A DNA stretch of 63,313 nt, the filler included, from Reclinomonas americana ATCC 50394 (taxonomy: Eukaryota): NCBI GenBank assembly GCA_048213135.1. It is 13 parts of 13 records of this genome, joined end to end, with 100 filler letters (N's around TTAATTAATTAA, not from the genome) between each part and the next. Parts side by side here need not be neighbours in the genome. Positions count along the whole stretch, not along the records: positions 58,015 to 61,286 come from AFZH01020995.1; positions 61,387 to 63,313 come from AFZH01020997.1; 11 more parts are not named here. One strand, given 5' to 3'. This document shows positions 1,621-63,313 of this stretch, piece after piece. Within the stretch, counting starts at the first letter, position 1, and each line of letters starts with the position of its first letter. The notes under the pieces were generated by a model. It saw only the letters and a list, made by a program, of their open reading frames with translations. It was not told where the DNA came from and did not search any database. The position numbers and the translations under genes were made by a program.

Positions 1621-4600
1621 GAGCTGTCTGTCGACTTCCACACACCACAGGCTTTCTCCACTCGCGTGTGCCTTGCGCGGCATATAGCCACGTTTAACCC
1701 ACAGATCATGCAGTCGGAATCGGAGAACACGCTCATCCACGTACGTATACAGCTGAGCCCACACGGCACCGGCGGATCAACTGCCACCGATGCACTTGCT
1801 CCCTTCTCACCACCCTCATCACCACCACTGTCACTGTCGGCATTGTCAGCAACGTTAACCGCACTGGTGCCTGCGGATCGACCACCACCATCAACGTCCA
1901 CGATCATGACATGATCAGCAGTTGCCGAATCCCCTCCACTCGCGCTCCCACTCCCACTCCCAGCATCTCGATCAACAACACCAACCGCAAGAGCGACACC
2001 ACGAAGCCGATCATCACCAACATCGTCACCGTGTACGTGGCCGCCACTGTCATAATCACCAGCACTGCTACCATCGTGCGCATCCGCATGCATGTGGACG
2101 TCACCACCACCACTCCCGTCACCGGTACCAGCATCATCGTCGTCGACACGATACCGATCACCGCCGGCCACCGCGCCGGTATGCGCAGCAGTACCAATAA
2201 TACCACCGGTACCAACAGCGGCATGCTCAACGGCGTCATCGGCGACGCGATTACCACCACCACGGCGTCGACGCCGTCGCCGACGATGACCACGGCGCTG
2301 CGTGTGACCACCACCGCCCGCAAGTGCGAGTGCTGCACGTGACATCTCAGCCCGAATAGAGGGGTGATTCCGCATCCAGAGAATTATGGCGACGACAGCT
2401 CGCCGGGCTAACAGCGACTCTGCCAGACGACAATACCATAATTTTAAACTCATATGTTGCACTCATCAACAAACAGTTGCATATATAGCACACTTATCAG
2501 CGCTGCGTACCGTAGTGCCAGTGACACCGCAAAGCTCCGTAGTAATGTTGGCGCCATGTGAGGTCTTCGATGTCAGCGTCATCTGCAACTGCAATGCGGC
2601 CGTCTGATACAGGCGGACCAGCTGCAGCTGAAGAGGAGGACCCGGGGCCATCACGCGTGCTTGTAGCGGTATGCTGCGCGGTAGCACTCCTTCGATGCGC
2701 ATTTCTGGTCGTCACCAAAAAACGCAGCACTTGCTCCGACTGCATAAAAGCCACATGTTGCAGGGCAGCTGTCACGGTGGCTGGTGATTTTGCGACTGTG
2801 GTGAGAGGAGTGAGTCATGTGAACACGAGTGTGAAGGAATGGAGATCCAGAGAGAGATCGAGAGATCTAGAGAGAGGTTGCCACGCAGACGACTCAAGTG
2901 TTACGTCGCGGACATTATAAAAAGGGAAGTTGATTCACAAAAACAAGAGGAGGGAGAGATAGCAAGCAGCATACTCCGGCCGGAGACCAACTTGCGCAAG
3001 AGCATGATCAGCGAGAACAACTGCTCGTAAATTACAACGAAACAGTTTGCGTACAAATTTGAAAGGAAGCGTAGCACACAGTGAGAGAACGTGACAGAAT
3101 GACAGTCCCGTCAAGATCATGTACAACAAGGTTGATCTTGGCTCAATTACAGACACGAGAATGATGGGTGAGACGAAAAGAACTCCTGATCACAAACAGA
3201 GAGCACCACCACGACGGAACAAATACTGCCACAATACAAGCTCATAGTGAATTCGAAGAGGAGAGAGAACGTCACCCGACATGCGTTGCTCTCTCAGCTA
3301 TCGACACGCACACGCTAATGACCACGTACCATCTGCCATCACTGATGACGACGTGCGCTGCGCCAGCAAGTGCACCGGTCCCTCTCCGGGGTCCGCATCA
3401 CATGTATCCGCCTGTACACGAAGCAAGTCGTGCCTTCCGAACATCAGTGCACAGCAGCGCTCTCCTTGCACCGCATCTGCACTCAGCGCAGTCCCACATT
3501 TAGAAGTGAGAACGGTGTGGTCAATTCACTGCCTTTTTTTACGTGCACGCAACTGTTGGCAATGCGAAACAGCCTGACGCGATCCACGAACAGCTTCAGC
3601 GCAGTCTTCTGTGAAGCAAAGTGTTCCGCCCGCAGCAACAACTCGCTGGAAAACAAGTGCTGCTGTTTGCCTGCAGATGCACTTGCCAGCAGTGCATCCA
3701 GTACAGCATCATCGTTCCCTTCACCGTCGCCACGCAATTGCACCAGCATGTGCGGATGCAGCAGGGCAGCCACTCTGTGAGCATTGCCCACCACGACAGA
3801 TGCACAGGCTAGCCAACCGGCAGGAGGATCCAGCATTTCCATGGCACCGCGTGCGTCGGCAGTCGGCCTGGACTTGGCACGACTGTGCTGCATGTAGCTG
3901 CGCACAAAGTCGCGGCCGATGCTGTCACATGCTGGACCGCGGCCGTCGAGCCACTGCGACGCCTCGTCGGCCAGTGCAAGACAGCTGTCCTCCAATTTCG
4001 ATAGCGCCTCACGTGCTTGAACAGTATGCGCAGCACCATGACCACCACCACCACCACCAGCAGCTGCAGATGCGGAACCCGACGCCTGATCCGCCACAGT
4101 AGCATCTAGATCTGCTGCTGCAGATGCCACAGATCCATCAACAGACGCAGTTGGTGCCTCTGTGCCGGCCATTCTTCGCGCATAATCCAAACGGTCTCGT
4201 GTCCACCGAGAAAACAGATAGTCATACACGGCACGCAGAAACTCAACACGTTCTGCATCTGGTTGTGGACACGACAGCGCCGCCAGCATGTCATCCACTG
4301 CAGGAGTGCTTGCACCAGTGTCCAGTCCTGTAATGTATGCTCGTGCGACCAAGAGGAGCCGACCGTCGATCTCAGCAGGGAGAGGCGGCACAGGCCAAAT
4401 CGTGGTCCCAGCGACGTACCACTTGCAATCGGCGGCGCCACCGATCAAGAAAACCCGCGAATTCACGATCGCCCACACCGTGCAAACATATTCGGGAAGG
4501 CGCCAGTCACCAATCTCTTTCGGCAGTGAGGCCAGTGTCTCCGCGGTGACAGCCGTGCGCACTGTATAGTGTGCACGAGAGAGCCAGCAGTCCATCCACT

Positions 4601-7600
4601 TCCAGTTACTGTTGTGTTCCACAAGTTCATACCGAATCCTCCGATCGCGTCTCTCGAAGAATTCGGGAGGTGCGTACGTCGGCAATGCCGGTGCCGCCGT
4701 GCTCTTGTTCCTGTCATCATAATCTGGTGCATGATGATGTGAGAAGACAGATCTCACGTTGCATGGTTGCGCCACTTGCACTCACCGGTGTAATCAAGTG
4801 CCGTAATTGCGTCGTGTACTGCTCTTTGCAGAGAGAGTGCGATACGCCGTGACACCAGCGCACATGTGCGAAGTACTGTGTCCGGATCCACAGAGTCCGC
4901 TGCTGCTGCTGCAGACGACGCTGCTGTTGTTGTTGTCACATGATGCGTTGGCTCATAATCACTAGTACTTGCTTCGAGCCTCTCGCACAAGCTGCTGGTG
5001 TCGACGATGAACTTGACAACGTCGGCTGGAAACACGCCGCGATGGCCGTTGTCCGCACCTGCAGCTGCGTTGGTCCACAGTTCAAAAACAACAGTGAGCA
5101 TGCCGGCGTGCCACAGAAAAACAACTGCTGATCGTGATTTACATGCAACTCACCATCAACGTCTGCATTCTGAAAGTTTGACCCCACAGTCGCCAGCACA
5201 GCACACTGTATCGCGCGGATGGCTTGCACTAAGTGCACCTTCTCATCGTCATCAATTTCGATAGTCGTGTCATTATCGTCAATGAGAGCGATCCAGAGTC
5301 GTGGAAAGTCGCGAACGAGGAACGATATGAGAGAAAGTGAACCGAAGTTTGAAGAATCACACTCGAACTCCTCCTCCTCATGATCAGCCGCAACGTTGAC
5401 TGTACACCAGTGTGTCAGTGATTATTTGGGGGAGGAGTGTGATTCACTCGCGCCGCTGATATATATACTCACCTCGACCAGAAGCAACGACATCATAATC
5501 AATCCCCGCAGCAGCACTTGCATATGCAGATCTTTCCGAGCCTTCCGATTGACAAGAACTCAAACGTGAGCGCAAGGACAGGCACCATGCATGCACGAAA
5601 CGACATTGCGCACTCTCACCTCCAGCAAACCCATCGTCGTCATCGTCACTGTCTCCGTCAACTTCCATGGTGACACCTGCATTAGGGTGTGCCAGACGGA
5701 TGCGCTTCACCAACGAACGCACAAACGACATGAATCTCTCCAACGCTGCAGGCGACTTCGCAAACGCGCCACCACCATCGCGTGCTGCGCCAGTCGCATC
5801 AGCATCGCGATCGGCACTGTCCTCGGGAGCGCTAGCAACGCTGCCGCCAGTGAATGCGCACCGAGTGCACAAGCCGATGAGCTGCCGACAGTGCAGAGCC
5901 TCCTTCGCCACTGTTATCATTTCGTCGGCCAGGGATCCCAGGCAAAACGCGGCGCGATTGACAGTCTTCTTGTTGGCAGTGGTTATGCTAGTCGTTGCCA
6001 ACCGTGATAGATGCGCCACCAAATCCCTGTCAGTGGACACGCGACGCTGCGGCACTCCACGGCCATCGCCATCGCCATCGCCATCGCCATCGCCATCGCC
6101 ATCGCCATCGCCATCGCCATCGCCATCGATATCGCCATCGCCGGCCGGAGCCGTCACCACCTCCATGCACGGAAGGACGTTCGCGAGAGCAGCCAAACAC
6201 CGAATGGAGAACACGTTGGGGTCCGAATGGGCCATCGTATCGGCGGCACGCATGAGAAGCTGAAAGCAGCCGCCAAGTCGCTCACGGAGCAGCTCGTCGT
6301 ACAAAACAATATTCTTCACACACGTCTCGATCTCCAGTGGTGCGGCTGTCTTGTTGAAAAGGGGCGCCACGCCGTCGCACGCACTGGCACCTGCAGCTGT
6401 GGAGAGTTGCGCCAAAAGATCTACAAACGAGAACTCTTCAGTCAGAACACACAAGATGCATGCTGTACACCACATTCAATTACAACGCACCCGCTGGGAT
6501 GATTCGATGCAAGGGCCGACAGTCAAGAGTGGCATGAAGCACGTGCTCCAGCCGCGAACGTTGATGCTCGTCAATCACAGCAGCAAGGACTGCACCCTCC
6601 ACACCTGCTGCAGCGGCCGACGCTGACGGTGGCAACGGTTCCTGCCGACTCGCGCCGACGCGAAACAGGTGCAGTACCGCGTCAACAAAGCCGGATTTCG
6701 AGAGATGCGTGTCCTTTGCCAAGCGCAGATTCAGAGAGGCTAGTTGCAGCAGCGCGCCGTGGCGATCCTCAGCTGTGCGCTTCAAAGATGCGTCTGAATC
6801 CCGGTAGAGTCTGGCAGACTGAACGCACAGTGCGACCATCTCGGTTTCGGCTGCTCGGAGAGCGCTGTCAGCATTGTGCGCGTATCCCTCCAACGAATCC
6901 AAGTCGCACTGGGCAGAACGCGCCAGGTCGGCAGCCGTTGAACGAGCACATTCTTGCACTTGCGCAGCCGGTGTGATAAGCCGACCCAGTTGTGCAGCAT
7001 GCTCGCATGCCGCTCCAACAAGTCTTGTGTTACGTGCTGCAGGATCCGCACTCGCACTCGCGTGGATGCCATAGGCGACACCGGCTGCCTGGCTGTGTTG
7101 TACGAGACCTCGGGAAACACGCTGTACAGCGATAGTTGACTTGAAGAGCGACTTCATCTGCTTGGTAACTGATACAGCAAAAAGCGTTGAGTCAGCGATA
7201 TTGTAATCACTACAACAAAGTATTATTTACAACAACACATGTACGAGGAGCAGCAAGAAGTACTAACGTGACAAGAAAGTGTGTGTGACAATCACATGCA
7301 ACACACATGTCAACAATGCCAAGACAACAACAACAACAGTGCTGACATGTACAACATGTTAACAGTGACAACAATGACAATGACGACATGTACGACAACA
7401 ACAGCAGCAACAACAATAACAAAAGTGACGACAGCAACAACATCAACAACAGTGAGAACAACAATAGTAACATTTACAACAACAGCAGCATGTACAGCAC
7501 GTACAAGTCTAATATGAACATGCATGCATACAACAACAAGAATCGACATAGCAGAGTCGTTGTGACACAACACAACCACAGAGATACATCCGTAGTGATG

Positions 7601-10600
7601 CACTGTGAAGAACGAGGATCACACTACCCTGCCAACGTGCTCACCTCTGTGAACTGTGGCTCGCACCGAGGATCGCACAGCGGCAAGTACTTGCGCACGA
7701 CGGGCTGCCTCTGCCTCGTCCACCACTTCCTCGTCGCCAGCAGATCGGCCGGCTCCATCACCCATCGGCTCGTCACCTTCGCCGCCGCTCACACTGCGCC
7801 TGTTGCTGAATCCATCTCCAGACTCCATCTCCGACATCCCGTGATCAACATCGGGCATGGGTTCGTCTCCACATCCGTCGTCAACAGCAGCCGCTGTGCG
7901 AGGTCGAGGTGAACCGGTGCCAGCTGCCTCCCCATCGCCGCGAACATGCGCACATGTCCACGACCATTCTCCGGCAGCCCCCAGCACTGCGGTACAGAGT
8001 GCTGCTGCGAGATCCTCGTGTTCGGTGAGGGGCGTTGGGATCGGCATGGTTGTGGATATGCAAGCTGCAACGTGCTTGAGGAACTTCTGCAGCACAGCTT
8101 CCAGTTCCTTTTCCAATGTAGACGTCACGCATTCATCGACGTCTCCAAAGACGCCGATGCGCGCGGTGATGCGTTCCATCAATGCTCTCAGGTGAGAACG
8201 AACTGCTGCCCGTATCTCCCCTCCAGCGAGAATGGTGTTCTGCTCATGTTGGTATCGATCACCAATGTGCTGCGTCGCATCTGCGATACAGACACCACAC
8301 CACCACACAGCAGTGAGACTGATGATATTAACAAGTGTGAGTGTGAGTGCGTTTGTCTGACCATCAACATTATCAGTAGCACCCTCCTCCTCATCCTCCG
8401 AACCCTGCTCCACCGCCTCCTCCTCGCCCTCCTCCGAATCCAGGTCATCTTGCATCCGCAGTTGCCTCGCCTCAATCTCTGCATCCTCCAACTCTGGTGC
8501 GTATGCGCTCTCCAGCAGTACTGCAGCATCAGCCTCGAGTCGCAAATCGTGATCGGCAGCTTCCTCCTGCTCCATGTTTTCGTCACTACCAGTGGCGACG
8601 CCTTCCTGCGGTGCAGGTGCTGCAGCTGATTGTTCCTCGCCGGCCTTATTGGTCATGGTCGGCGGTGTCTTGGTGCGATAGCGAAGAGTCCCAATTGCCG
8701 AAGCTACACGCTCGCGTGAGAACACATGACAATGAGAGTTGGTGGACAAGCGTAGTCGTGTAACTTAATCGTTCCTGAGTGCTGGAAAGTTGAGAAGCGA
8801 GCAGCTCGAGGTAGTCGCCATGTGTGTTGGCATGCACATCTGGTGCACGCACCGCACTTCGCCTGCCACCAATTCTCAGTGCTGTCGTATTCACAACAGT
8901 AGTAGTCGGTGAGAACAACGAGAGAACGTGGCGCACTGTGCAATCACTGCCGCACCATAGACAGTGGTGCAATTGGCGAGGAGCTGGACCATTGCATCGT
9001 GGAACAAACAAGTGACATCAAGCAGGGCAGAGGAAACACGGGCAAGGTGGAGCTGGAATTCGTCGTCATCGACTGCAGCGCGAGCGAGATTCCGGGACTG
9101 TTGAAGTTGAGCGATATCTGTCAAAAGTTTTCTCGAGATTGTCGCACAGGCGTCGGCCAGTCCAAGGTCAGCGCTGTTCGCGTGTTCTGCGCCAAGATCG
9201 TGCGCCGCCAACAGCAGGATTGCGTCGCATATGGCCGAGTCAATGAGGTGCTCGACTTCGTCTGCCACAAGCGAACCACCACCGATCAGTCTGAGACAAC
9301 GTTGACAATACCACATTCTCAGCTGACAGTACCCTCTGCGCTCTTATCCTTCTTGCCCTTCTTGCCCTTTTTGCCGTTTTTGCCCTTCTTGCCCTTCTTG
9401 GCTGCGCTGGCTGTGGACTTCCGCGATCGGGAGTCATCACTCATGGTCTCTGCTCATGAGTAATGACGATGAGAAGGCGAGTGGTAACATGTCGACAGTT
9501 CGTCTCTGCACCAACTGCACCAGTCTCCCACTGCACTACATGCAACTGTCAACGCAGACAACACTTTGGCAATGCACTGCACTACGGGCTGTTATAATAA
9601 TGTTTCTTTGTGTGCAACAGGTACCTAGGCCTGTTATACTGTGATCTCGCTGCGTGTACTCTCTGCAGATCTGCTCTGAACAAGCACTCACCATCTTCAC
9701 GTGAACCTCCGTCGCTCATGACAGTCTCACCAATGCAGTTGGCAGTGGCGTTCACAGTGGAAGAGCTCGGATCTGGTGGACAAAAAACGTTCACAATTAA
9801 CAACTGATCAGCGAGATGAACAGCGTGCCATGGAATAAGTGCTATTGTCGCTCCTCACCAACATGCATCGCCTCCGCATCTACTTGAGATGCTCCAGCAG
9901 CGTCATGATCTGCCACCGGCAACGCTACTGCTTCTTGTTGTTGTTGTTGCGCACGCGTCTCTCGAAATCTTCGTATCAGCTCCCGGACGAACTCCGGCAC
10001 GTCCGTGGCCATGAAAACGCAGGGATTGCCACTGTCAGCAATCGCCACTGCACCAGGCTCGTGCGCCTGTCGGCCTGCAGCTGCCACCTGCTGTTGTGCA
10101 AACTGCACGCAGTGTGCAAGAGCACCCTCTATTGCACGCTGTCCACCAGCATAGAGTGGCTTCTTTTTCTTGTCACTCGAGTTCTGGATGCCGCGATGTT
10201 GCCGGCGCACGAAGAGTCGATTGAGAAAGGCCACCATCTCTCCGGATGTATGAGCCGGAGCAGAGAGGCTTGCGAGGAAAGTCTCCATCATCTACGAGCG
10301 CGCGGAGAGAGACAGATCAGAAATTATTGTTGATCATGATTCAGAATTCCCACCACAGCATCACTCACCTCAATGTCTCTCGACACTTTGTCAAGGTCAC
10401 CCTTCCCAAGTCGCAGGCGAAGTGACGTCGTCCCGCGTGCACGCGCTCTTCTCCGGCTGTCGGCCTCCGGGAGCCTACGGCGACGTCGACAAAGAAGCAC
10501 ACGACCATTATCCACGCCGTGTTTTTCCTGCCGGACGACACTTCGCGTGCGCTTGTGCACGACAGGAATGGAGATGTTGGTAAGCCCGCACGTGTACTGC

Positions 10601-10845
10601 CTCAGTCCGCTGAGACGTGCGTGAGTGATTCTGCGCAATGAAAAAATGGGAGGCAAAGGAAAAGAAGAGTGAGTGAGAGAGCAGGTGTTCGACTGTGCGA
10701 TATGCAAACAGGCCGCGCGCTGCACCTTGCTCTGCCCGAAACACTGTCATGCTCGAAAAAAAGGCGCACATGGTGCTTCTTGTTGGTGGCAAGAATCGAA
10801 GCCACAGATTCATCACCCACAATCTCCAAGGGGCCGATTTGTATG

Positions 10846-10938
<93 letters not shown>

Positions 10939-13900
10939 GACACAAAGGGCGTCATGACGTCGGTCATTTGGTTGTGCAGACATACACACTGCATATGGTA
11001 CATGCACAAGCAACTCACGTTACAGCCGGCTCATCTTCTGGAGGCACTTCGACCTCACGGAAGCGAATCGAGAAATCTCCATAATGGGTCGGGTCATTGA
11101 GCGGCAAGCGAACAGAGTACCCGGATTTCTTGTCGGTGGTGGCGCTGGCGTGGAAGTTGGTGATGCCAAATGCGCCACTGCATGGACACACACACACGCA
11201 CACACACATGCAGAGAGAGTAAGTCCCAGTGATGGTCAACTATCATCACGCTTATAATTATGACGACGAAGCGCAACATTTTCTTCTTAGAGGCACCACC
11301 TTCCTGCTTCGCAGCTGCATGGTCTTTTGCTACTTTTCGAGCACCCTTTGCGGCTCCTTGCCGGAGACGTGAGCGCCGATACGCAAAAGAGCGAATCATT
11401 GATGCTTGCACCCGGAAATCGGCACCGTCCGAACTGCATGCACGCGTGCACACACAAACCACAACAAGGGGGTGGATTGAGCACGAGGAGACATCGTACA
11501 CGCGTGACAAGAGTGGTGGTGATGTGCACAGATAAGAAGACATGATCACGGAGATGAAAATGAGCGGTGTGACTTGTGAAGAAAAAAGAGACCCATGACT
11601 AACATATGCATGACCAACATGCTGATCAGTGAGACAACACCAACTACAGTGCTGATGACAGAAATCACGCGAAGCGATCCACAGCAATGAGCATGCACAT
11701 GTACATCTACCAGTGATCTCGGCGCCAACAAGCCTCTTTCTTGTGCTTTCCTCAACAACAAAGAAACATCACCGATCCACAACAATGAACAGCCACTGAT
11801 CGCAGCGCAAACAAATCTCGCGAGCTCGTGTGCTCTCCTTCTACAGTCTGCAACACAAATAACTGTTCAGAGCGCACCTTGTGGACAGCAATAGTTCACG
11901 CGGATCTTTTGTGGTCGACGATGAGAGCCATACGAGGCTGGCCAGGAGGGCCTGCGTTGCTCCGTCCAGCTGATCGCTATGCGCACTCAAAAGCGAGAGA
12001 AGAGTGTGCACATGATGTGCCCCCCCGGAAACCTTTGCGGCGCTGTTGGTAGCCACTTGCGCAGCGACAACCACATGGTTTGAGATAAACTTCTCAACCA
12101 GGCGGCGCCCTCCTTGTTGTGCTGCAGCTGCTGCGGCAGCTGCTTGTGGATTCTGTGACACGCGTACGCATCGTGTGCATGAGGCGTAAGCACTGCATGC
12201 GCATGCAATTACACAGCAACCACCACCCCTCTGACCCAACGCACCGGCGGTCTCAGATCGTCGGCAAAATTGCGTGCATGCGCCCTACTTTCCGCATCCG
12301 CCAGTGCCGTAAAGCGGGGAATGCACTGAGCCGCACGCTCGAGCATTCCACGTTCGCGGTCGGTGGGAGTGTACGTCTCTCCTTGTCCCGTGGCGATGCC
12401 AAACACTTCAGTTGACTCTTGTGCAATCTCAGCGACGCGGAGGAAGGTGCCCACAAGCAGCGCCTGGTCATCGCAGCCCCCCTCACTGAACAGAGCACCT
12501 GGAATATTCAGCCTTCCTTCCTGAGTGTTTGCGGAGGGAAACGAGAGTCAACATTGCGCATCAGTCACTGCTAACAGAGAAAAGAGAAGAACATCGACAA
12601 CCACCAGACCGTCAGCATGAGTGCGTTGGTTTTCGAACCACAACCAGCAGCGGCATCTTCGTCTTCATCGCCATCATCCGTGTCCGACTCATCGTCACTG
12701 TCCCCCTCGCCATGATCTTGGTCACTGTCACCATCTGCTGCAGCAGCCGTCCGGATATCGTCGATCCGGTCGTCATCCTCCTCCGAAGAAGAGGATGAAG
12801 ATGAAGATGAAGATGATGAATCATCGTCATATTCACAGTCCGACGACGGTGCTGCCGCAGTACGCGTTGTTGGTCGTCGTCGATCTTGCGTTTCTTGTGG
12901 GTGCTCATGGTCACGATTGATTTTCCGTCCAGCACCTCGTGTACCGCGACGCGTACGTCTCCGAGTCGCCTTCTTGTCGAAGCCATCGGCGCCGGTGTCT
13001 TGTTCGCTGCCTTTTGCAACTGGCGGCAACTGTGCATGTGTGTCATGCATGAGGAGTGAGTGCACACGCGCTGCGAGTGTCGACATGCACGCGCGCACAT
13101 CAAACCACCCACCTTCTTGCATTTCTTCTTCTTGCTGTTTTTTGATGGCACAGCAGGGGGTTGAATGAGCACGAGTGGCTCCACCCGACCAGTTGTTGCC
13201 ACACGCTCAGTGTGCGACTTTTCACAGCGCTGTCGCAGTGCCTGCAGCTGTTGATGCGTGCTGTATGCTCCATTTTTTCCAGATGTACTGTGAGGCGTGG
13301 TGGTTGAGTTTGTTATTTGTTTCTACAAAAAACTACGGCACTCCTGCAGCTGTCGACGCGACTTACCGACTATTGAATGCCGACAGCGCACCAGTCTTGT
13401 CCTTCTTCTTCTCCGCCGACCCGCTAGCATCATCTGCAAGCAGATTTGGCGAAAGACCACGTCCGGCGAACACCTTGTGGAGTGATTGAATCTCCCGGCT
13501 CCTGTGCCGCGCCATAGACGCCTGTTTCGTCATCGGCGCCTCGTCGTGGGACAGAATTGCGACGGTGGCAGGGGCTGGTGCACGTGCAACGGCAGGATCG
13601 ACCGCCTCCTGCGTAGCTGCTTGTCGACTCCTGTCGCGATCGGACAGCACACCTCACGAGTCAGCACACATGCAAACAAACAAAACAAGAGGCAATTGAT
13701 TGGCTTCGTGCCGTTGTTCTACGTCTACTTGCAACAGCTGGCGATGCACGATGATTCTTCGCGCACGTGCAGTTTGCCACAGAGTCGACGCCGGACAGTT
13801 GCGTCTGGTGGCCATAGAAAAACAAGAAGAGGTATACCGGTAAGAAGTTTTGTCGTGTATATAAAACAAATCAAATGCAACACAGTTACCTAGCGTGGGC

Positions 13901-15396
13901 AAACTTGTGTACGTCTTCCCGGATCTCTTTCACCGCAAGGGCAAGGCACTCGGCTGCTTCTGTGAGTGTTCCCACAGAGACGCTACTGAGTGAGACCTCA
14001 AGCGGTTCATCGTCTGAGCGTTGTCCACGCCGACGCTGCTTTCCACCACCTCGTACACCACCACCTCCAGCTGCACCTGGTGCTGCAGGTGCTGGCGGTG
14101 GCGCAGCTGCGGGCACCGGCACTGCTGCAGCAGATGATCCGGATGTCGATCCGGATGGCACCTTTGCTGCCTGATCTTTCGACTTCTTCGCCGCACGAGC
14201 GGCCTCGAGTTCGAGCTCGAGTGCTGTGCGCCGTCGCTTCATGTCAGCCGCTGCCACCTCTCGCAGGCAAAAGTCGTGAATGAGGCACAGTGCAACGACG
14301 TGCACAGGAGAGGAGCTCTCCAATGCGATTGTTGCCAGTTTTCGCACGGCTTCCTCTGAGTCCATCTTCATGCATGAGAGGAGATCAAGAGCACGCTGGT
14401 CAGTGTCTACGCGCACGGCGGCCGGCGCCGCGGATCCCGCCAGATGCACATTCCTAGATCCGGAATTCGAAGAGGCACAAGAGAATGCTTGCAGTGAGCT
14501 GTGCAGATCGTCCAAGACGCTCACAAACTGAATCAAGTCGATGTCTTCAACGACGTCAACCTCGCTGTACGTGGCGGTCGTGTCGGTTCGCGGCAATATC
14601 TCAGCAACACATAGATATATATAAAGTGGCGCAACTCCTCATCGCTCCACACATGGATGAGGCACCATGCGCTCGTGATTAGGGCCATTTCGAGTAACTG
14701 CTTGGTCTTGGTGGGAGACATTTCTCTCGCGTTGGGCGACGACTTCTCTTGCCCCAGCGCGAGAGAAGCTCCGGAGAATGGCACCAACATGTTGATAAGT
14801 GAATCGGGAACCAGGTGGAGCCAGTCGCAGCGCGTCTCTTGTTGAGCACGGATTGCTGTGAGTGAGAGATCGAGAGGGATCAATAAGCGGTCAAGCTTAG
14901 AGCATGCGCACATAGTCGTTGCGACGTCGCAGCGCACGAAAACGTATGCGTGTGTGTGTACACTTTAGCTACGCAACTGTTGACAACCTGGTTGAAGCGT
15001 TCGCGCAATGCAAGCAGCCGTTCGTGGAGAAGTACTTCTCTGTCCTCACGCACATTCTCGTATGCACCCCCTTCTGCGCATGCTGCTTCGACCTTTTCCT
15101 TCAGCAGAGACCGCTGTAATTATAACCACATACGCACCACGTATGTGCACCGATGTGAGTGAGAATAGATATATAGCAGGATTACGCTCGCGTGGGCAAA
15201 AGTGATCACCAACGGCACACACCGTCTCACAGAGGATGTCTTGTGGAGTGACATTCTCCACAACTGACGCTATGGATATCGCGTCGGTGGGCACACCTGT
15301 CATGGCCTTGACAAGCGCGCCGAGCATGCCATTCGCCACAGACTGCACCTCAGGAGACTGACTGCTCGAGTCCATGCACTCCAACACACCCCGCAT
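223..15396 (-). CDS. Giant multi-exon Fanzor2/TnpB-like RuvC nuclease gene (manual model: 31 exons, 11,040 nt, about 3,679 aa)
   Basis: Proposed exons 5'->3': 15396-15223, 15113-14978, 14855-14636, 14564-13890, 13804-13712, 13630-13367, 13287-13113, 13029-12645, 12498-12245, 12152-11878, 11433-11278, 11177-11019, 10845-10726, 10630-10369, 10291-9859, 9772-9692, 9449-9333, 9261-8956, 8881-8765, 8703-8362, 8280-7645, 7168-6491, 6435-5473, 5399-5154, 5064-4786, 4723-3554, 3476-3330, 2795-2511, 2419-1562, 1339-1120, 1036-223. All junctions are phase-compatible GT-AG except one GC-AG (donor 13711). Weakest links: 13712/13630, 12645/12498, 8765/8703, 3330/2795. Extra in-frame introns are possible near 1740-1670 and 850-763. 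The confidence refers to the single-gene model; the RuvC call is listed separately. Confidence 0.6.
398..484 (-). repeat. 12-bp coding tandem repeat (KKGG)n in the nuclease C-terminal tail
   Basis: Repeated TTGCCACCCTTC units encoding KGGKKGG...; followed by RKRER and KRRN basic clusters (NLS-like). Confidence 0.85.
6062..6142 (-). repeat. 6-bp coding tandem repeat (GCCATC)n encoding a Gly-Asp run
   Basis: About 13 units within exon 6435-5473; translates GDGDIDGDGDGD... Confidence 0.9.
7169..7644. repeat. Low-complexity CAA/ACA-rich tract filling a 476-nt intron
   Basis: Degenerate (CAA)n between donor G|GTGAGC at 7644 and acceptor TATCAG at 7169 (minus strand). Confidence 0.7.
9347..9400 (-). 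repeat. 9-bp coding repeat (KGK)n, NLS-like
   Basis: CTTGCCCTT units; translates AKKGKKGKNGKKGKKGKKDK in exon 9449-9333. Confidence 0.85.
10550..12380 (-). CDS. Putative TnpB/Fanzor WED-REC lobe within the giant gene
   Basis: Ordered resemblances by eye: TYTPTDRERGMLERAAQCIPRF (cf. TnpB N-terminal YPTxxQxxxLxxxxGCxR), FRVQASMIRSFAY (cf. PxxIRxxA helix), ITNFHASATTDKKSGYSVRLP (cf. FxxxFKSKK...SIxIP), HHVRLFF...NISIPV (last WED strands). Individually weak, but in the expected order over about 300 aa. Confidence 0.55.
10847..10937. repeat. (TG)n microsatellite, about 45 units, intronic
   Basis: Pure dinucleotide run abutting the acceptor at 10846. Similar TG/CA/GA runs at 21910-21956, 50466-50491, 56642-56696, 58950-59002 and 59558-59592. 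Confidence 0.95.
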
Positions 15397-17878: not shown

Positions 17879-17978
17879 NNNNNNNNNNNNNNNNNNNNNN
17901 NNNNNNNNNNNNNNNNNNNNNNTTAATTAATTAANNNNNNNNNNNNNNNNNNNNNNNNNNNNNNNNNNNNNNNNNNNN
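17879..17978. other. Artificial scaffold linker N-TTAATTAATTAA-N (first of 12)
   Basis: Identical 100-nt linkers with six-frame stops at 17879, 22965, 28260, 32598, 40799, 47740, 50163, 52032, 54482, 56471, 57915 and 61287. BiP, WDR41, TMEM260, the TPR gene and Brr2 continue colinearly across linkers, so contig order looks real but gap sizes are unknown. Confidence 0.98.
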
Positions 17979-23820: not shown

Positions 23821-26800
23821 TTACAGAGGCACGTTCAACAATTCGTCGGCACGGTCGATCAGCAACTGGAACGCGGCGTTGCAGTCAGTGATATTCTGGA
23901 GGAGAAGTATTTTTTGAGTACATCGCAGTTACCGATTCTGAACACCGTACTAACCCGCATCGCCACCAGTGGATTCTCGTCGCGCGACTTGAGGCACGTT
24001 GGCGAAAAGACGGTGGCCAGCGAGAGCGATCGCATCAGGTTCTTGTCGGCGTGCCGCAGAATCTCGCGCATCAGCGCCACCAGCCGCCGCAGCAGCGCCA
24101 GATTCGCACGCGGCAGCGCCAGCAGGGCACGGCGCACAATCGGAAGCGCTTCGGGGGCCTTGTCGCGTCCGATTCGTGCTGCGCGACAACGAGTTTTGAT
24201 ATTGGTGACGCGCCGCATCAACAGCACATTCTCCCAAACACTCACCACCAGCATCTACAAACGTATCGTACAGCTCATACGTGAGCAGTGGCTCCGGGAG
24301 GTCACGAAGGTACAACTTGAGCAGCGAGCACACACTCGACGTCTCCAAGTCCTCCACAGCCACATTGTAGCCTGTGCGTGCTCGGTCAGACGAGGAAGAG
24401 GAGGAAGAGCAGCACACGCGCACAGAGAAACGCACCAGCCTCGATTTGTGCCTTGACTCGCTGCAACACGGCACCGGCACCGGGCACACGGAACACGCCC
24501 TCCTCGGACGCGCCTGTGCATCACATGAACAGTGAGACCGCCGTGTGGTGACAACAAGGTGTGTGGTGCATGCGAACCGTGCGAATGAATGGCGTTGATG
24601 CAACGAACAAGAACCAGCGGCACACCGTCCTCGTCCTTGGGCACTGTACGCGGAAAACACACAGTGAGTGAGCACAGAAAGAGAGAGACACACACATACA
24701 AGCAAGAGTAGCAAGCGGCAGACGCAACAGCTGCAGTCACCCAAGCTGGCACCGAAAAACCTGACTGGAGGCACTGCGGCAAGAGCACAAGAGTGAATTG
24801 ATGACAGGGGTTGGATGACTGTCGCTTCACAGGGAGGGCGGTGGACGCACTCTCGTCGGAACGTGTTTGCGTCTCGTCCCACCTGCGCATTGTTGGTCAG
24901 TCACCACTCGAAATTCAGAGGGGCGCAAGTCGACGCAACAATATCACTTCGGTCGGCAGCGGAATGTTGTCCTTGCCTACTTGCTCGTAGAGGGCGGTCA
25001 CCGAATCTAGGTAGTGGATCTTGCGGTAAAACTTGGACGAGATGAACAGGCGAGCCAGTCGGAACACCGTCTTTTGCCAAAATGACGGGTGCAACAAGTA
25101 CAGGGCCTTCAGATTCTTCTTGTACCTGCAGCACGACATCACATCAGCGCGCCATGGCCACTCAATTCACAACACACACGTGGCACGCAACTGTCGGCCA
25201 AAAACACGGTACATGCGTTTGATCCACGAAAACGGAGGTCGGTTTGACGCCGTCATGTTTGCCTGCGCGTAGCGCACAGAAGCGTCGTCAGAATAAGCGT
25301 GGCCCCCTCGCCCACGCAGACGACCCGAGTGCGCAACTTGACAGGACACCACAACATACGGCTGCTGTACAACATCATGCATCTTGAGGATGAGGTAGCG
25401 AATGAAGCTCTCGAGTCGATCGCGGTTCGGGAAGCGCTCCATGACCATGGTGACGATTCGTCGACCCTCGCGGTCGGTTCCTGCGAGCCCCCCACACGCC
25501 ACGAACATGAGTGCAAAGAAACTAACAGAGGAAAATAGAATACGCTCGTACCAGGGAAGCTGAGAATGCGGTCGCGTTCAAAGTCCGAAAAGTCTTCAGC
25601 CTGCGCCTGCGCATACAAGGCATCGTACGACTGCTCCACACCTGCAAGCAGCACGAATCGTGTCGGTCACGAGGAAAGCACACCCGACATGCAACAAAAC
25701 AGACCAGTGTCGTCCATTCGGTGCTCCTCGGCCTCGTCCAGCGCGGCAATCTGGGCATCTGTGTGCACACACAACAACACGACCAGTGAGGACACGGCAC
25801 GACACTCCTTCTCTTTCTTTGCATGGCACGTAACCGCGCAGTGGTTCGCCGACGGGGTGATCGGCAGCCTCGCGGTCCAATCGCACTCGCAGCTCCTGCA
25901 ACTTGGCTATCCGCACCGTCAGCGCCTTGTAGTACTCGGACACATCTTCGCCTGGGTATCGCTGCTCAAAGAACTCGGACAGCAACTGTGCCGCCACGCA
26001 GTGACAGTAGGTGAGTACAAGCACAAGAGAGGGCGGTCATGCGCCACTGACCTTCGTGTACTTGGACACAATAACATGCAGTGCTGTGGCCATTTCCACA
26101 TCGTCGTCGTCCATGTCAGCCATGTCTGCACAGAACAAGACAGAGAGAGGCGCAACGCGTGAGAGACGATTCATGCGGCGATCCGGCACTGCCAACGCAC
26201 CCAGTCCGGTGCGTTCGGGAGGGCGACACAAGCCCACGAGGTACGCCGTCATCGGCTGCTGATTGCGTTCCAGGAACGGCGCCATGCACTGCATGTACGC
26301 TTCCTTGGAGCCGAAATCTGCTTGATTCGACACATTCTGCGAGTAGCGACAAGTTAGCAGCAGCCCACAATTACAACAAGACAGTGCAAAGAACGAAACC
26401 TGCAACACTTTCGAGATGAGAATCAGCTTGCGTCGCTGCTGCGGGTCGAGTGTAATGTCGATGATGCCACGATGGTCGGCCACCGCAATGGCCGGATTGA
26501 GGTATCGCAGAATCACCAGGCCACCGACCAACGGCAGTGGATCCACGCCCATTCTTCGCGACGTCTCGCTAATGTGGAAGGCGGCATTCCTGCAACACGA
26601 GAGAATGAGTGAGCACATCACCAGCGAGTTCAACGAGAGCACGAAAGACACAGCCACGCACTTGACTTCAAACGGCAACAGATCCGCGGCATGCTCGTTG
26701 ATGAATGAGTCCAACAGCTCCTGCGACGCCGCCGCCAACCGCTGTGCATTCTCCTGCGTCAGAGCCTCCTTCTCCGCGTCGCTCAGATCCGACGGCATTT

Positions 26801-27815
26801 TGCTGCGCAGCCGCACTCGTCAGCACCACACACACACACACGCACAGAGAACGAAAGACGAGGAGGCAACGCAACGCCGGATCAATCTCGAGCGATCCCG
26901 GATCGACAATGATCTCATTGAGTGACTTGCGCAGCACCACACCCAAGTACAGCTCCGGAGGTGTGTTCTCTACACAGGCGCCCAGCATGCGTCAGAGAGA
27001 GAGAGAGAGAGAGCGAGTTGACAAGCGGAGAAAACGCAACGAATGTAGGCATCGATAAACTTGGTGGTCAACGAGGCACCGCGCAGAATCGCATTCACAT
27101 TCTCCACGCTGATAAACTTGGCAAACTCGGCCTCCAACAGCGCATCCAGCACGTCGCCTGAGAGAGCACATGCATGAGCGCGCGTCTAATAGTGTGTTTG
27201 TGAGTGTCTGTGAGTGAGTAAGACCTTCGCACTGCTTGCGCCGAGAGGCCGCAGAGAGCAGGCCACCGAGCTCGGTCGAGTCGACTTTGCGGATGTTGTG
27301 AAAGAGACCGCAGAGGACCCTGTGTGCACGCGCGCGCGGTCGGGAAATGGCACCACTCTTGCACTCGCTCACACACCTTGCAACTCACAAACATAGAAAG
27401 CAGACAGACAGGCAAGGTAACAGTGTGTGTGCGTGCTGCGTGTGAATAGGAGAGAGCAGCGGAGAGAGAGAGAGACACGCACAGAGTGTTGAGAGAATGC
27501 ATTTACAAACACGAGCGCGAGAACTTGCGCGAAAAAACCTCACGTACACACACTCTCTCACACACACTCTGTCTCGCACACTCACCGACGATCTTCCAGT
27601 GTGAACTGCAGGAACCTGTCCGCAAAGAGAGAGTGAGAAAGACAGACATGCGGAGAATCATGTTTGTGTTGAGTGGTGTGTCGTGTGCTCAACTCTCGGA
27701 ACCACGAGCGGTTGTCGAGATCAGCAGCAACAGGCTCGTAGTCGTCCATCAATGAGCGGTCGCGCGCGATACTGCCTCCGCGGCTTGGTCTCAACAGTGG
27801 TGAGCCGTGAGACAT
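23821..27815 (-). CDS. RasGAP - CRAL-TRIO/BCH - RhoGAP multidomain protein (multi-exon)
   Basis: RasGAP: AILRGASLTTK, SLEIDP, VGGLVILRYLNPAI, LILISKVLQNVSNQADFGSKEAYM. BCH: GTDREGRRIV...YKKNLKALYLLHPSFW...SSKFYRKIHY. RhoGAP: FFGASL, VPLVLVRCI, EEGVFRVPG, SLLKLYLRDLPEPLLTYELY, NLMRSLSLATVFSP; stop at 23821. Confidence 0.85.
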
Positions 27816-58057: not shown

Positions 58058-58946
58058 CATTCGAGCTGATCACGTCGACCATCGCCTGCAGGAGTCGCGA
58101 CGCCAGCGGCAACATAAATGCCACATCATCGCGCATGTCGGCCGACAATTTGTGACCGGCAAAGTGCGATTGCAAGAGAACGTTGGCCTTGGTGTGCGGA
58201 TCCGAGAACTTGGTGCTGGTGATCTTCAACAAAGCATGCGACGCCAGCTGTCGTGACAACAAAGAATAAATGATCACAGCAATGAGACAAGAGGCGGTGA
58301 ATAGAGAGGTGCATGCTGGTCACCAACAGACCTTGCGAATCGTTTCTTCTTCGTACTGGCGCACCGGCAAGTCGGCGAACTCCGAGGCCGAGCTCAGAAT
58401 CTCCACCAGACCACGCAGCTTGGTGCGCGCATTCAACGAAGAGCCAAAGATTTCGATTGTGGAGTACTTGACATCTGCGTCGCCGACAAGCATGAGGCAC
58501 AACGCAGCAACCACGCAGCGCGGCAGGGCTTCATCGACGCAACAGTAGTAAGCGGCAATCATGCCAAAGTTCAGCGGGAACACGTCAATGTCGTCTTCGA
58601 TGCTGAGGCATTTGGCTGACTCAAGCGTTGTCAGCACACTCTCGACCAACTCCGACAGGTAGTCATTGACGTGCTGATGCGACACGCCTGCCACATGGAA
58701 GTGTGAGGAAACAAACAGCGTGTACAAGCACCAGCACGCAAGCAGAACACGCACCAGGCAAGTTGTAGTAGTTCGGGTTTTGCGTGATGCGGCGGTACAA
58801 GAACGTCCACGTCAAGTAATCCACAGCCTCCTGTTTGTTCTCGATAGTCTTGACGACCACCTCGGCATTGATGTGGTCGGTCAAGAAGTGGTCCAAATGC
58901 GACTACAACAGACAAACCATGAACAACACGAGCTGGAATACGCACG

Positions 58947-59005
<59 letters not shown>

Positions 59006-59557
59006 GCATACCTCGACAGGCAATGGCTCGTACAGGAATTTCTTGTAATAGTCCTTGCGCGGCGTGTGACAGAAGATAACGCAGCGGCCTGGGTTAACGA
59101 CTGTCAGCAAAATGCAGGGCTCTCCCACAGTACAAGCACGTCGCATCCACTCCACCACCAACCTGATTCGCCCTCCGACGGCTGGCAGGCACGACCCATC
59201 ATTTGCAGAATGTCGGTCACTTGGTAATCGATGTATCGGTGTTCGCGACCATCGTAGAACTGCGTGCCGGCGACCACCACCAAGTTCGCCGACAGCGTCA
59301 AGCCCCAGCAGGCCTCGTAGTTGGTAATCACAACCTACGGAGAGGGTGGCATAAGTACGGGAAGAGCGGGGGGACTCAAAGGAGAGGTGGCGTCACACGC
59401 AACTTGGATGGCACCTGCCGAGAACAGCTCGTGCACAATCGTGATATCCTGCGCCGGCATGCCGTCGTGGAAGTAGCCGATGCCGTATTCCAGAGTTCGC
59501 TTGAGAGTCTGTTCACACATACACACGCGCGCGGAGATTCAGTACGATGTGAAATAC

Positions 59558-59593
<36 letters not shown>

Positions 59594-62500
59594 GTCTCTT
59601 CGACTCTGTCCACAAAGGGGGCAACATCCTCCGGCGGAACCAACAAGAAACGCTTGGGGTTCTCCTCCGATGCACAGAAAGTCAACAACTCCACTGCTGT
59701 GAGTCTCGTCTGCTTTCGTGACGGCACAAAGATAATCACTGCAATACGCAGCGTAAGAAACAACAAGCAGACGGAAACCTAAACACGGGACGGCGTAGCG
59801 CAAACCTGGCTTTTCTCGAGGTACCGACTTCACAGCGAGGAAGGTCGGCTTGCTCATGGCCAACATGCGTGACTGGTACGTCGGTTGATCAAAGCCCTGG
59901 ATACGAACATCCAGCGGCACAGGGCGCACGTTGGGGTGGAAGTTGAAGATTGCCGACGAAGGCGCTCCAATCCAGTCGCCCGCGTCACGCGCGTTCGCCA
60001 GCGATGACGAAAGTGCCACAATACTGTGAATGCATCCCGACATCAGCAAGTGATGAAAAGAATGAGTCGCCGATGGGCACGCACCGAAGGCCATTGGGCA
60101 ATTCGGGCGCCATTTGCCGCGCACGCGACACCACCACCTCCAGCGTCGGGCCCTTCTCACCACCAATCAGGTGCAGCTCGTCGACAATGAACAGCGTGAC
60201 TGCTTGGACGTGCTTGCGCGAGCGCCAGCGGCGACTGACCACATCCCACTTCTCTGCTGAGGCGACAATCACCTCGCCCACCTCGCTGACAGACGCAATA
60301 ATCAAGAGCGTTGAGCGCACTTGTCGTCAGCGGATGAGGCACGCAGTGGTAAGAGACGCAACACAAGCTTCAAGTCGACGGCATTCTCGCCAGTCAGCTT
60401 CACCACACGACGACCGAGGAGTCGACCGAACCGATTCTCCCAGTCTCCAAAGCGCTCGTTGGCAATCGCATCCGTGGGTGCGACATACACAATCTTCGGT
60501 ACGTGGTCCTGCAGCAGAACGGGTACATCAGTGACACGAATTTCACGCTGCACGTTGTGTCGTTGGAACAGCAAAAACTCAACAGGATCGGCCTTGGCCA
60601 GGTTGAACGAGCGCAGCATGGCAAACTCGGCGCAGACGGTCTTGCCGCTGCCGGTTGGTGCACACACCAAAACATTGTCGTTTGAGTTGTACAACGAGTT
60701 GAACACCTACGAGCACGCCAAAGTAAGCAACAAACTCTGACAAACGGAGGGGGGACGAGCGAGGGATACAGAACTTGAGTCTGAATGGGATTGAAGAAGC
60801 GGAAGCCACGGTACAGCTGCTCGATTTCCGCATTGCGAAGAGCAGACACTGGCAACGGCTGCAAATCGAGCAGCTCCGTGTGCGGCGGGTACTTTTCAGG
60901 CAAGATCAAATGGCGGAACGACACCGGGAGCAGGCTCTCGGAACCTGGCGTATCATGGGGAAAGAAACGGAGAAGTGAGTAGCGAGACGCACACGGCAAC
61001 ACAAGAGACAGGCGCGCACCAATCCAGCGATCCGACACCACTCGGATAAAGTACTGGGGCGGAAGGGGCTCGGAGATCGGCACAGTGAACATCATGAAGT
61101 GCTCGTCTTCCACATAACGACCCTTCAGAATAAAAGGCCTGCATGCACGGCGCATTAGCCTCCACGCCGCCACATCACACTTATCTCACAAGCACTCTGC
61201 GCAACTCGTAGTGCAAAATGTGCTCCGCGTCGCCGTCTTCCACGAGCACCAAGAATGGCTCTGCATGGCCATGCAGCTAGAAGAGGNNNNNNNNNNNNNN
61301 NNNNNNNNNNNNNNNNNNNNNNNNNNNNNNTTAATTAATTAANNNNNNNNNNNNNNNNNNNNNNNNNNNNNNNNNNNNNNNNNNNNGGTTATGTCGAGCC
61401 GTACCTTCTCGTAGGTGATTTCGTCCATCAGCTGCATGCGCTTCAGTGCCTTGCGCTCCGTCACGCCAATGTACTGCTGCGTCAGTGGCACCGGGCGGTA
61501 GCTGGACGGGAAGTGGAAGAGACCTGCAGAGACCGCACATCAGTGCTGCATCAGCGTGGCAACAATGAAATCTGCGCTCTCACCGGTCTCGGGGTTGACG
61601 CGCAGGAATGCGGCAACATCGCGATAATTCGGCAGTGTGGCCGAAAGACCCACAATGCGAATCATGTCCTGCGTGGTCTCGACCTGGCGGATCGTGCGTG
61701 CCACGATTGACTCAAGCACAGGGCCACGAGAATCGTGCAACAAGTGAATCTGCCCAGCAGTTAGTATTCGTGAATGAAGCACAGAAAACATAGTATATTT
61801 TCAGGCCGTACCTCGTCAATGATGAGCAACTTCACCATTTGCGTGTACGTGCGGTCGCCAGACTTGCGCGTCACAATGTCCCACTTTTCCGGTGTCGTCA
61901 CAATGATTTGCGTCTCCTGGATTTGCTGCTTTGACAGCTGCATATCGCCGGTCAACTCACGCACAATCAGGCCTGCCGCAGGAGGGAGAAACCACACACG
62001 CAAGCGTAAGTTTTTCTCGGCACACAGTGTCAAAAGACAACAACAACAACAACAACAACAATGAATGTTGCATGTGCGCGCACCGTAATCCTTCAGTCGG
62101 TTGCCAAAGTTCAACACGACTTCGCTGACCAGCGCCTTCATGGGGGCCACATACACGATCTTGAAGGCGTCCTTGTCGATTGTGCCGTCGGCATGTCGGT
62201 GCATGGCAAGCTCGTGAAGAATGGCCAGCAATGCAACGTTGGTCTTGCCGGAACCTGCAACAATGCAAAGTCAGTGACACACGCACATGCCGAAAGCACA
62301 ATGCTGTACTGACCGGTGGGAGCACACAGCAAGAAGTTGTCCGCGTTGTGGTAGGCAGCGTTGAACAACTTGCTCTGCACACGGTTGAAGTGCGGGATGG
62401 AGCCGAAAGGGGCACGCGCCCACTCTGGCAACTCCTTGACTTCAATCAGTCGCTCGCCGGCCTCCAGAGTCGTGTTGGCCGGGTGCGGCACATGGACCTC

Positions 62501-63313
62501 CTCGTAGCCTTTCTTGGTGGTGCGGAACGAGCCCTGCGGCAATTTGACCTTCTTGTTGCTCATGAAACGACCGCCCTGCTCGAACTCAAGAGTCTCCAGA
62601 TCCAGCAAGTGTCGTGAACGAAGAGCGTTGGCCTCGGTTTCTGCGAAAAAAACACCAGTCAGGGAGCCACGCCGGAGGCAAAAGCTGTAGCAATGGCAAG
62701 ACAAACCAGCAACGGCAGCACTGGCGGCCGCAGACGAAGCCGAGCGACGAGACTCGGCGCGACCCGCAGCTGTCGATGTGGCAGCCGAGGACGACGGTCC
62801 ATTCTCGCGCTCGTCAAGAATGAGTGACAGCGTCGGATCCTCGCGCATTTCGTCGGCGATGACCTTGTACTCGTCCTCGGTCTTGGCGCGCGCCAGACGC
62901 GTGCAATACAACACTGGTCGCCCCGCAACATCACGTGTGAGCAGCAGTTGTAGAACGAAGAAGAAAATCACGCATGGCACACAGCGGTAACCTTTGGTCT
63001 TGTTGCGCAGCAGCATCTTGATAAAATCGAACTTGTCATAGTCCAACAACTCGACCAGCTGGTTCTCGCACTCGCGCTCATCGTCCAGTGCCAACGCATT
63101 CAGTACTGCGACAAAGAGTGAGATCGAGAGAATACAACAATGCACAACGGCAGGAAATGCACGCACCTTCATCGGCCAACGCCATGGAGCGGTGGTGGTC
63201 AGTGACGTACTGTGAGATCTGTCGCTGCAGCCAATAAGCATCGATGGAAGTCGGATCGACGTAGCCACCGTCGCGCTGCTGGCGGCGATCAAACTGTCCC
63301 CCGTCGAGATCAC
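58058..63313 (-). CDS. SNRNP200: U5 snRNP 200-kDa helicase Brr2 (partial at both ends, internal gap)
   Basis: [67 protein letters not shown]; Sec63 region [16 protein letters not shown]; second cassette [44 protein letters not shown]. Confidence 0.98.

Follow-up and report, generated by a model that had tools for sequence, protein, structure and literature searches.

A second class of 5' splice sites, displaced by one base, in a 63-kb window of the Reclinomonas americana genome

Gene content of the window

The window analysed here is a stretch of 63,313 bases from Reclinomonas americana ATCC 50394 (assembly GCA_048213135.1), made up of 13 contigs of 1.3–17.9 kb joined by twelve linkers of the form N44-TTAATTAATTAA-N44 (for example at 17879–17978 and 61287–61386); genes on the two sides of a linker are not necessarily neighbours in the genome. 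The DNA is eukaryotic, with a GC content of ~55%, and intron-rich, with short introns. Two contigs carry parts of a gene for the spliceosomal helicase Brr2, and its introns, like those elsewhere in the window, have 5' splice sites (donors) of two classes, the second displaced by one base relative to the first. A preliminary description of the window had drawn attention to donors of the form GTTNNG following an exon base other than G. We write a slash for the exon–intron boundary and H for a non-G base at position −1; donors with +3T and +6G (GTTNNG) are called shifted, and those with +5G (GTNNG) canonical. All 23 sites listed in that description as H/GTTNNG, and both of its exceptions, read as given, strand included.

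Genes were named from Pfam matches to open reading frames (ORFs) of at least 75 aa at E ≤ 1e-4 and are collected with the individual junctions in Table 1. The identity of Brr2 (SNRNP200) is established by its Helicase_PWI and Sec63 domains and by a full-length, collinear match to proteins of this family. All 120 homologues retrieved share 50–60% of their residues with it, which is uninformative as to taxonomic placement, and the middle part of the protein (approximately residues 490–990 of homologue P0034) is missing between the two contigs. A metagenome scan with one Brr2 exon for DNA of a close relative returned nine loci at 46–75% identity, none of them close and none used further; the 75% match spans just 28 residues, and full-length matches do not exceed 61%.

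Table 1. Genes, introns and donors discussed in the text, in positions of the window.
Feature	Position	Strand	Donor and phase	Support
Brr2 (SNRNP200-type helicase), end of first Sec63 unit and second helicase cassette	58056–61276	−		14 introns; spliced alignment with 12 homologues, scores 1455–2179; Pfam Sec63
Brr2, N-terminal part, separate contig	61402–63305	−		7 introns, all after G; Pfam Helicase_PWI; spliced alignment
Brr2 intron, shifted donor	61139–61205	−	cga/GTTGCGC, phase 2	12/12 homologues
Brr2 intron, shifted donor	60707–60774	−	caa/GTTCTGT, phase 0	12/12 homologues
Brr2 intron, shifted donor	60509–60583 (acceptor 60509 or 60494)	−	cct/GTTGAGT	donor 6/12 homologues; rival GC donor 60598, 5/12
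Brr2 intron, shifted donor	60286–60362	−	tgt/GTTGCGT, phase 2	11/12 homologues
Brr2 intron, shifted donor	59335–59403	−	caa/GTTGCGT, phase 0	11/12 homologues
Brr2 intron, shifted donor	58475–58543	−	act/GTTGCGT, phase 1	10/12 homologues
RasGAP-domain gene intron, shifted donor	26803–26875	−	ggc/GTTGCGT	13/20 homologue alignments
CRAL_TRIO/RhoGAP (ARHGAP1-like) region intron, shifted donor	25126–25191	−	aca/GTTGCGT	5/6 homologues
Exception, canonical donor after non-G	26590–26661	−	caa/GTGCGT	9/20 homologues (plurality); same intron position in relative P0121
Exception, shifted-type donor after G	26337–26399	−	cag/GTTTCGT	18/20 homologues
ARHGAP1-like donor	24577	−	acg/GTTCGC	5/6 homologues
ARHGAP1-like donor	24435	−	ctg/GTGCGT	5/6 homologues
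Six diverged tandem repeat units	46520–48637 (sites 46520, 46905, 47297, 47690, 48238, 48631)	+	[C/T]/GTTGCGT in each	5/6 called de novo
RasGAP, CRAL_TRIO and RhoGAP region	23.8–27 kb	−		Pfam
WD40 gene	~38–40.8 kb	−		Pfam
TMEM260-like gene	50.3–52 kb	+		Pfam
TrAA12-like ORF	5447–6475	−		Pfam

Splice junctions of Brr2

The introns of Brr2 were located with a protein-to-DNA spliced aligner that allows GT or GC donors and AG acceptors and applies no further donor scoring. Run with 12 Brr2 homologues on the minus strand of the contigs at 61387–63313 and 58015–61286, it yielded 21 consensus introns of 59–111 nt, one per ~170 coding bases, and the spliced exons are stop-free. Although the aligner is ignorant of the motif, it recovered all six non-G donors that had been named in Brr2, with support ranging from 6/12 to 12/12 homologues. 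Every one of the six is GTTNNG, with G at +6 in 6/6 and at +5 in 0/6. The donors after G number 15 (roughly 16 had been counted before) and, as had been claimed, are mostly ordinary: +5G is present in 14, the exception being aag/GTTACC at 62991, and +3T never occurs together with +6G. The association between the −1 base and the shifted pattern (0 shifted and 15 other after G, 6 and 0 after non-G) is significant by Fisher's test (p = 1.8e-5), as is that between the −1 base and +5G (p = 1.3e-4). Without the three least supported introns (62706, 60583 and 58331), p is 1.2e-4.

The junction at 58543 had been said to restore a conserved residue, and it does. Under the GT-AG reading the split codon is TAT (Y), and Y stands at this place in 12/12 homologues, whereas a cut one base downstream would give TGT (C).

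Two Brr2 donors after G, at 59805 (cag/GTTTGCGC) and 59011 (gag/GTATGCGT) on the minus strand, have +5G and in addition a TGCG[TC] placed two bases deeper in the intron than usual, either by chance or because the core may occupy further offsets besides the two described. Some introns contain long (TG)n/(GT)n runs (58950–59005, 59560–59595, 50440–50500 and 56330–56360), in part right at the donor, as at 59592 (acg/GTGTGTGT...).

Junctions of the RasGAP/RhoGAP region

Homology also supports a number of junctions outside Brr2, with 20 homologues used for the RasGAP part and six for the ARHGAP1-like part; the RasGAP homologues are too distant to settle most junctions upstream of 26900. Four shifted donors had been proposed in this region. 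Those at 26875 and 25191 are supported (Table 1), while at 27040 the homologues are divided between this site (6/20) and a GC donor at 27026 (7/20), and 27693 is used in 1/20. Taken together, the 27 homology-supported donors of Brr2 and the GAP region comprise 1 shifted-type and 17 other donors after G, and 8 shifted-type and 1 other after non-G (p = 3.5e-5). The exception that had been pointed out at 26661, a canonical donor after a non-G base, is supported by homology. Exceptions are commoner than was implied: the donor at 26399 is of shifted type after G, and de novo gene finding (see below) sets an upper bound of 27 H/GTNNG calls.

One relative, P0121, is of interest for the intron at 26590–26661. 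Its identity to the RasGAP region is 67% in the homologue search and, in a BLASTP alignment of 158 residues, 55%. P0121 is an ORF in which the position of this intron, after ...LPFEVK, is read through. The read-through, known from the protein only, begins F-C, which requires TTY TGY. If the K codon is AAG, the donor of P0121 would be A/GTTYTGY, of the shifted type, at the place where the window has the exceptional A/GTGCGT. P0121 also has a 22-residue insert after GGLVILR that is absent from the window, possibly an extra intron, again judging from the protein only.

The RasGAP, CRAL_TRIO_2 and RhoGAP domains share one strand of one contig (23100–28200, minus strand), and the downstream part aligns whole to ARHGAP1-like proteins of 390–480 aa. 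The region may hold two adjacent genes instead of a single fusion.

De novo gene finding

The other contigs were annotated with a semi-Markov gene finder comprising a 3-periodic coding model, an acceptor matrix and an intron-length term. It was scored against the Brr2 junctions, which were excluded from training after the first round. In its motif-blind form the finder requires only GT at the donor; its calls therefore mix true donors with random GTs, yet are not biased towards the motif. For the 161 motif-blind calls on the non-Brr2 contigs, the full set of 2,552 sense-strand GTs served as background. Donors with −1G and +5G were observed 30 times against 8.9 expected, and shifted donors after H 17 times against 5.6; shifted donors after G were seen 3 times (1.0 expected) and +5G donors after H 29 times (35.1 expected). 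G/GTNNG and H/GTTNNG are thus each enriched about 3-fold and H/GTNNG is not. The association of the −1 base with the shift is significant in the calls (Fisher p = 0.008), and the background GTs (2 × 2 table 141, 16; 557, 88) show no such link. In a rerun with better content models p was 7e-5 for all 255 introns and 0.004 for the 46 introns of high quality. A background subtraction in which the classes with neither pattern (80 observed, 109.7 expected) were taken as pure background leaves, by rough hand arithmetic, ~23.5 true donors with −1G and +5G, 12.9 shifted after H, 2.3 shifted after G and 3.4 with +5G after H. On this rough estimate the shifted class makes up ~36% of donors, and some four in five non-G donors are shifted.

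A two-component mixture of donor models, seeded by the motif-blind calls and trained on the non-Brr2 contigs only, converged on G/GTGCGTG (66%, −1G 0.70) and H/GTTGCGT (34%, −1G 0.09). Held-out Brr2 donors were placed correctly in 19/21 cases by the mixture and in 15–16/21 by a single weight matrix, which has no dependence between positions. The warning that the second class would mislead simple predictors is thereby borne out: an independent-position model misplaces 5–6 of the 21 Brr2 donors against two for the two-class model, and annotation of this genome consequently needs a two-class or register-aware donor model. In the final mixture table, 71 donors after G have +5G, 4 are shifted and 12 are neither, and the corresponding numbers after non-G are 27, 42 and 31; the table is partly circular and serves solely as the upper bound for exceptions quoted above. 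Both motifs are already present in the raw motif-blind calls and absent from three random-GT controls, and the gain in log-likelihood from a second component is 57 for the motif-blind donors compared with 32–42 for the controls. Self-training with the motif-blind donor drifted towards over-splitting (Brr2 accuracy fell from 15 to 11–12/21), and a subset of introns with a single frame-compatible GT held only 21 introns, many in doubtful models, and was uninformative. As for the sites listed beforehand, 15/23 were called as donors de novo: 5/6 in Brr2, 2/4 in the GAP gene and, in the regions to which the names FN3, S53, IPT and Fanzor had been given, 1/1, 1/1, 5/6 and 1/5 respectively.

From these numbers the description of the shifted donors as a major class holds: they account for 6/21 Brr2 introns, for 34% in the mixture and for ~36% after subtraction, that is, about 29–36% of donors.

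Register of the second class

Column profiles of the canonical class (class 1) and the shifted class (class 2) agree when class 2 is offset by +1 but not at offset 0: the correlation is r = 0.65 in the former case and 0.17 in the latter, and the mean total-variation distance 0.21 and 0.39, respectively. The agreement at +1 extends to columns that do not define the classes, with +3G of class 1 corresponding to +4G of class 2, +4C to +5C and +6T to +7T. The donor consensus of class 2 thus matches that of class 1 only when displaced by one base. Class 2 also lies nearer to its consensus, with frequencies of 0.79, 0.81 and 0.75 at +4G, +5C and +7T against 0.57, 0.41 and 0.67 at the equivalent positions of class 1.

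The same picture emerges from counts of the motif. GTTGCG[TC] occurs 58 times on the two strands, and 2/58 copies follow G; G precedes just 15% of all GTT in the window, so that this depletion is not extreme (p = 0.005). Within predicted gene spans the motif is found 39 times in sense and 10 times in antisense (p = 4e-5), and 30 of the 39 sense copies were called as donors. The base before the sense copies is A in 13, C in 14, T in 11 and G in 1, compared with G before 30 of 101 sense copies of GTGCG[TC]. This −1 composition differs from that of canonical −1 (chi-square p = 1.9e-5) but not significantly from that of canonical −2 (p = 0.08). That class 2 has a non-G base before the cut would accordingly follow for the most part from the register, in which this base probably occupies the −2 position, and the displacement would explain the joint occurrence of −1G and +5G.

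The six tandem repeat units on the plus strand, which had been described as IPT-like, show the heptamer GTTGCGT as seven consecutive invariant columns in a background of 59% mean identity, and their similarity ends just downstream. The pattern fits a selected exon–intron boundary. The six sites are paralogous and hence not independent, and count as one origin. Each unit is ~390 nt long (46440–48730) and has an intron at the same place, and no Pfam family was found for the repeats on ORFs of at least 75 aa.

Introns of class 2 are otherwise ordinary, with a median length of 70.5 nt (72 nt for class 1) and a GC content of 0.55 (0.53). An introner or repeated intron family was considered and rejected: an all-against-all blastn of 166 introns revealed no similarity beyond the signals. 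A few introns produced nearly all of the matches, whose offsets advance in two-base steps, the pattern expected of dinucleotide runs, and the (TG)n/(GT)n runs mentioned above account for almost all of this similarity. The 52 shifted-class introns contained one matching pair (26875 with 30336, 36 nt at 81%). Minor introns were likewise rejected. U12-type introns are defined by a donor /RTATCCTT and a tight branch-site consensus, and the donors here read GTTGCGT or GTTCTGT.

Discussion

We consider it probable that the two classes of U2-type GT-AG donors are one signal used in two positions, with U1 as its likely reader. Class 1 (about two thirds of donors) is HG/GTGCGTG and class 2 (about one third) H/GTTGCGT, and the two would share a register H-G-K-T-G-C-G-T, where K is G or T and the intron begins at the first GT of the motif. 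Where K is G, the cut would fall after the register G; where K is T, the register G would become the first base of the intron. The 5' end of U1 would pair alike with both classes, in class 2 displaced by +1 from the cut and with one odd position opposite K, and the scissile bond would be set later, at GU, by the catalytic spliceosome (U6, U5 and Prp8). The preliminary description had regarded the shifted mode as context-dependent, with the −1 base selecting it. A single motif H-G-[G/T]-T-N-N-G-T that is cut before its first GT fits better.

Roca and Krainer are said to have described, in 2009, a one-base displacement at atypical human 5' splice sites of the GUUAAGU type. The donors seen here resemble such sites in that GU is followed by U, the consensus comes one base late, the match in the normal register is poor and the cut, which is a predicted one here, lies at the upstream GU. 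They differ in consensus (GCGU here, AAGU in human) and in frequency, the human sites being atypical and the class here comprising about 29–36% of donors. In human sites the use of a shifted register is well established (PMC4856993); shifted U1 pairing in R. americana is proposed by analogy.

A split of donors has been reported in another form, NN//GURAG against AG//GUNNN, where exon and intron matches compensate for one another in one register (as outlined in PMC11732430). As here, two separable classes differ at the exon end. In that system, however, a donor with −1G tends to match less well in the intron, and there is a single register for both classes, whereas −1G and +5G go together in Brr2 (+5G in 14/15 donors after G and in 0/6 after non-G) and class 2 is shifted by one position. 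Class 1 itself has a consensus, G/GTGCGTG, like that of Mamiellophyceae: canonical introns of Micromonas read AG/GTGCGT (PMC3879977, donor description) and Ostreococcus introns outside chromosome 2 GTGCGTG (PMC2483917, donor description). The donor descriptions in these two papers mention no GTTGCGT class, and the introns of these algae are few, compared with one per ~170 coding bases in Brr2 of R. americana. A paper on tunicates goes no further than to suggest that a shifted register might be involved (PMC13326754). In our full-text searches, supplements aside, we found no lineage described as having a common shifted-register class.

One alternative to the displaced register is a bulge, in which U1 pairs normally with +1G and +2U, the extra U at +3 is looped out and GCGU pairs normally. 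By hand count this gives as many pairs with standard U1 as the shifted register does, and bulges at +2/+3 are documented in humans (PMC4856993). Like the asymmetric-loop registers treated in the same paper, they place one extra nucleotide between GU and the equivalent of +5G, as is seen here. Such registers keep the exon in its canonical position, and −1G, which pairs with C9, should remain favoured. In class 2, however, −1G is found in 0/6 of the Brr2 donors and before 1/39 sense copies of GTTGCG[TC], and its frequency in the learned mixture is 0.09, compared with 0.70 for the canonical component. Since −1G is not favoured in class 2, the shifted half of the earlier proposal of a 'shifted or bulged' register fits better, and we think the bulged half rather improbable. 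A more serious contender, though still an unlikely one, is an altered or duplicated U1 with a different base opposite K, or with two variants matching GGUGCGU and GUUGCGU. Such a U1 would be one particular form of the single-register model, with class 2 fully paired instead of mismatched. It would account for the preference for H/GTTGCGT over H/GTGCGT, which standard U1 fails to explain by hand count, and agrees with the tighter consensus of class 2 compared with class 1; standard U1 (5' end ACUUACCU) also leaves unpaired the C that is strong at register position +4. U1 5' ends are, on the other hand, usually conserved. AG/GTGCGT is, moreover, also the canonical donor consensus in Micromonas (donor description in PMC3879977), which counts against an alteration of U1.

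A different reader, either U6 through its ACAGAGA box or a protein, might instead bind UGCGU at a variable distance from GU. The Brr2 donors 59805 and 59011, with TGCG[TC] two bases in, hint at a floating core, but both also obey the ordinary +5G rule, and the invariant G one base upstream of K, which pairing with U1 C9 explains, would be left unaccounted for; we regard this reading as very unlikely. That the pattern reflects chance or mis-annotation, with GTs picked to suit a preconceived motif, seems scarcely credible. The de novo models are noisy, the IPT-like sites are paralogous and G is already rare before GTT (15%), yet the motif-ignorant aligner and the gene finder both display the pattern, background GTs lack the association, and Y is found at the 58543 junction in 12/12 homologues.

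Several points weigh against reading the two classes as one signal in two positions. All results come from a single 63-kb window, which limits their scope. The cleavage positions are fixed insofar as protein homology and the GT-AG rule fix them, and for four of the six shifted Brr2 donors (61205, 60774, 60583 and 59403) the base after the acceptor is G, so that sliding both ends by one base leaves the mRNA unchanged and the GT-AG rule alone decides. Annotation outside Brr2 is noisy, as the motif-blind finder placed 11–15/21 Brr2 donors correctly, and 14/23 in the rerun. On the motif-blind donors, the Bayesian information criterion does not favour two components over one, and a p-value of 1.6e-13 obtained from a model already holding both classes is not to be counted. 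The equivalence of registers is imperfect, in that class 2 may have G at −1 less often (1/39) than class 1 has it at −2 (6/30). No spliceosomal small nuclear RNA (snRNA) was found in the window: there were 0 Rfam matches at the gathering score, and none of U1, U2, U4, U5 or U6 was among 17 sub-threshold matches (E ≤ 5). Finally, with the standard U1 5' end (AUACUUACCUG; given in PMC4856993), H/GTTGCGT forms four Watson–Crick pairs and one wobble in the shifted register, and H/GTGCGT in the normal register forms an equal number, less interrupted (both by hand count). With equal pair counts, standard U1 leaves the preference for class 2 after non-G unexplained, and a changed U1, or a special weight of the G:C9 pair, may be responsible.

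A bolder possibility, to which we give limited credence, is that the spliceosome of R. americana has uncoupled the U1 register from the cleavage site genome-wide. A changed U1, or two variants of it, would read H-G-[G/U]-U-G-C-G-U, and U6, U5 and Prp8 would set the cut at the first GU, so that about one third of introns would be cut one base upstream of the position marked by U1; the catalytic core would then have to accommodate an additional nucleotide separating GU from the U6 helix. Studies of how the cut is placed when U1 pairing and GU are in conflict have used engineered substrates and a small number of atypical human sites. A genome with about a third of its introns displaced would be a natural system in which to ask which snRNA or protein determines the cut, whether U1 or U6 have co-evolved with the donors and what spacing the active site tolerates.

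Other features of the window

The names Fanzor, S53, FN3 and IPT that had been given to genes of the window received no confirmation from Pfam at the thresholds used here. For the WD40 gene the search found no homologues, and its ~16 introns are predictions. The region 1–15000 on the minus strand, to which the name Fanzor had been applied, holds the weakest gene models of the window, and the TrAA12-like match is its only Pfam match.

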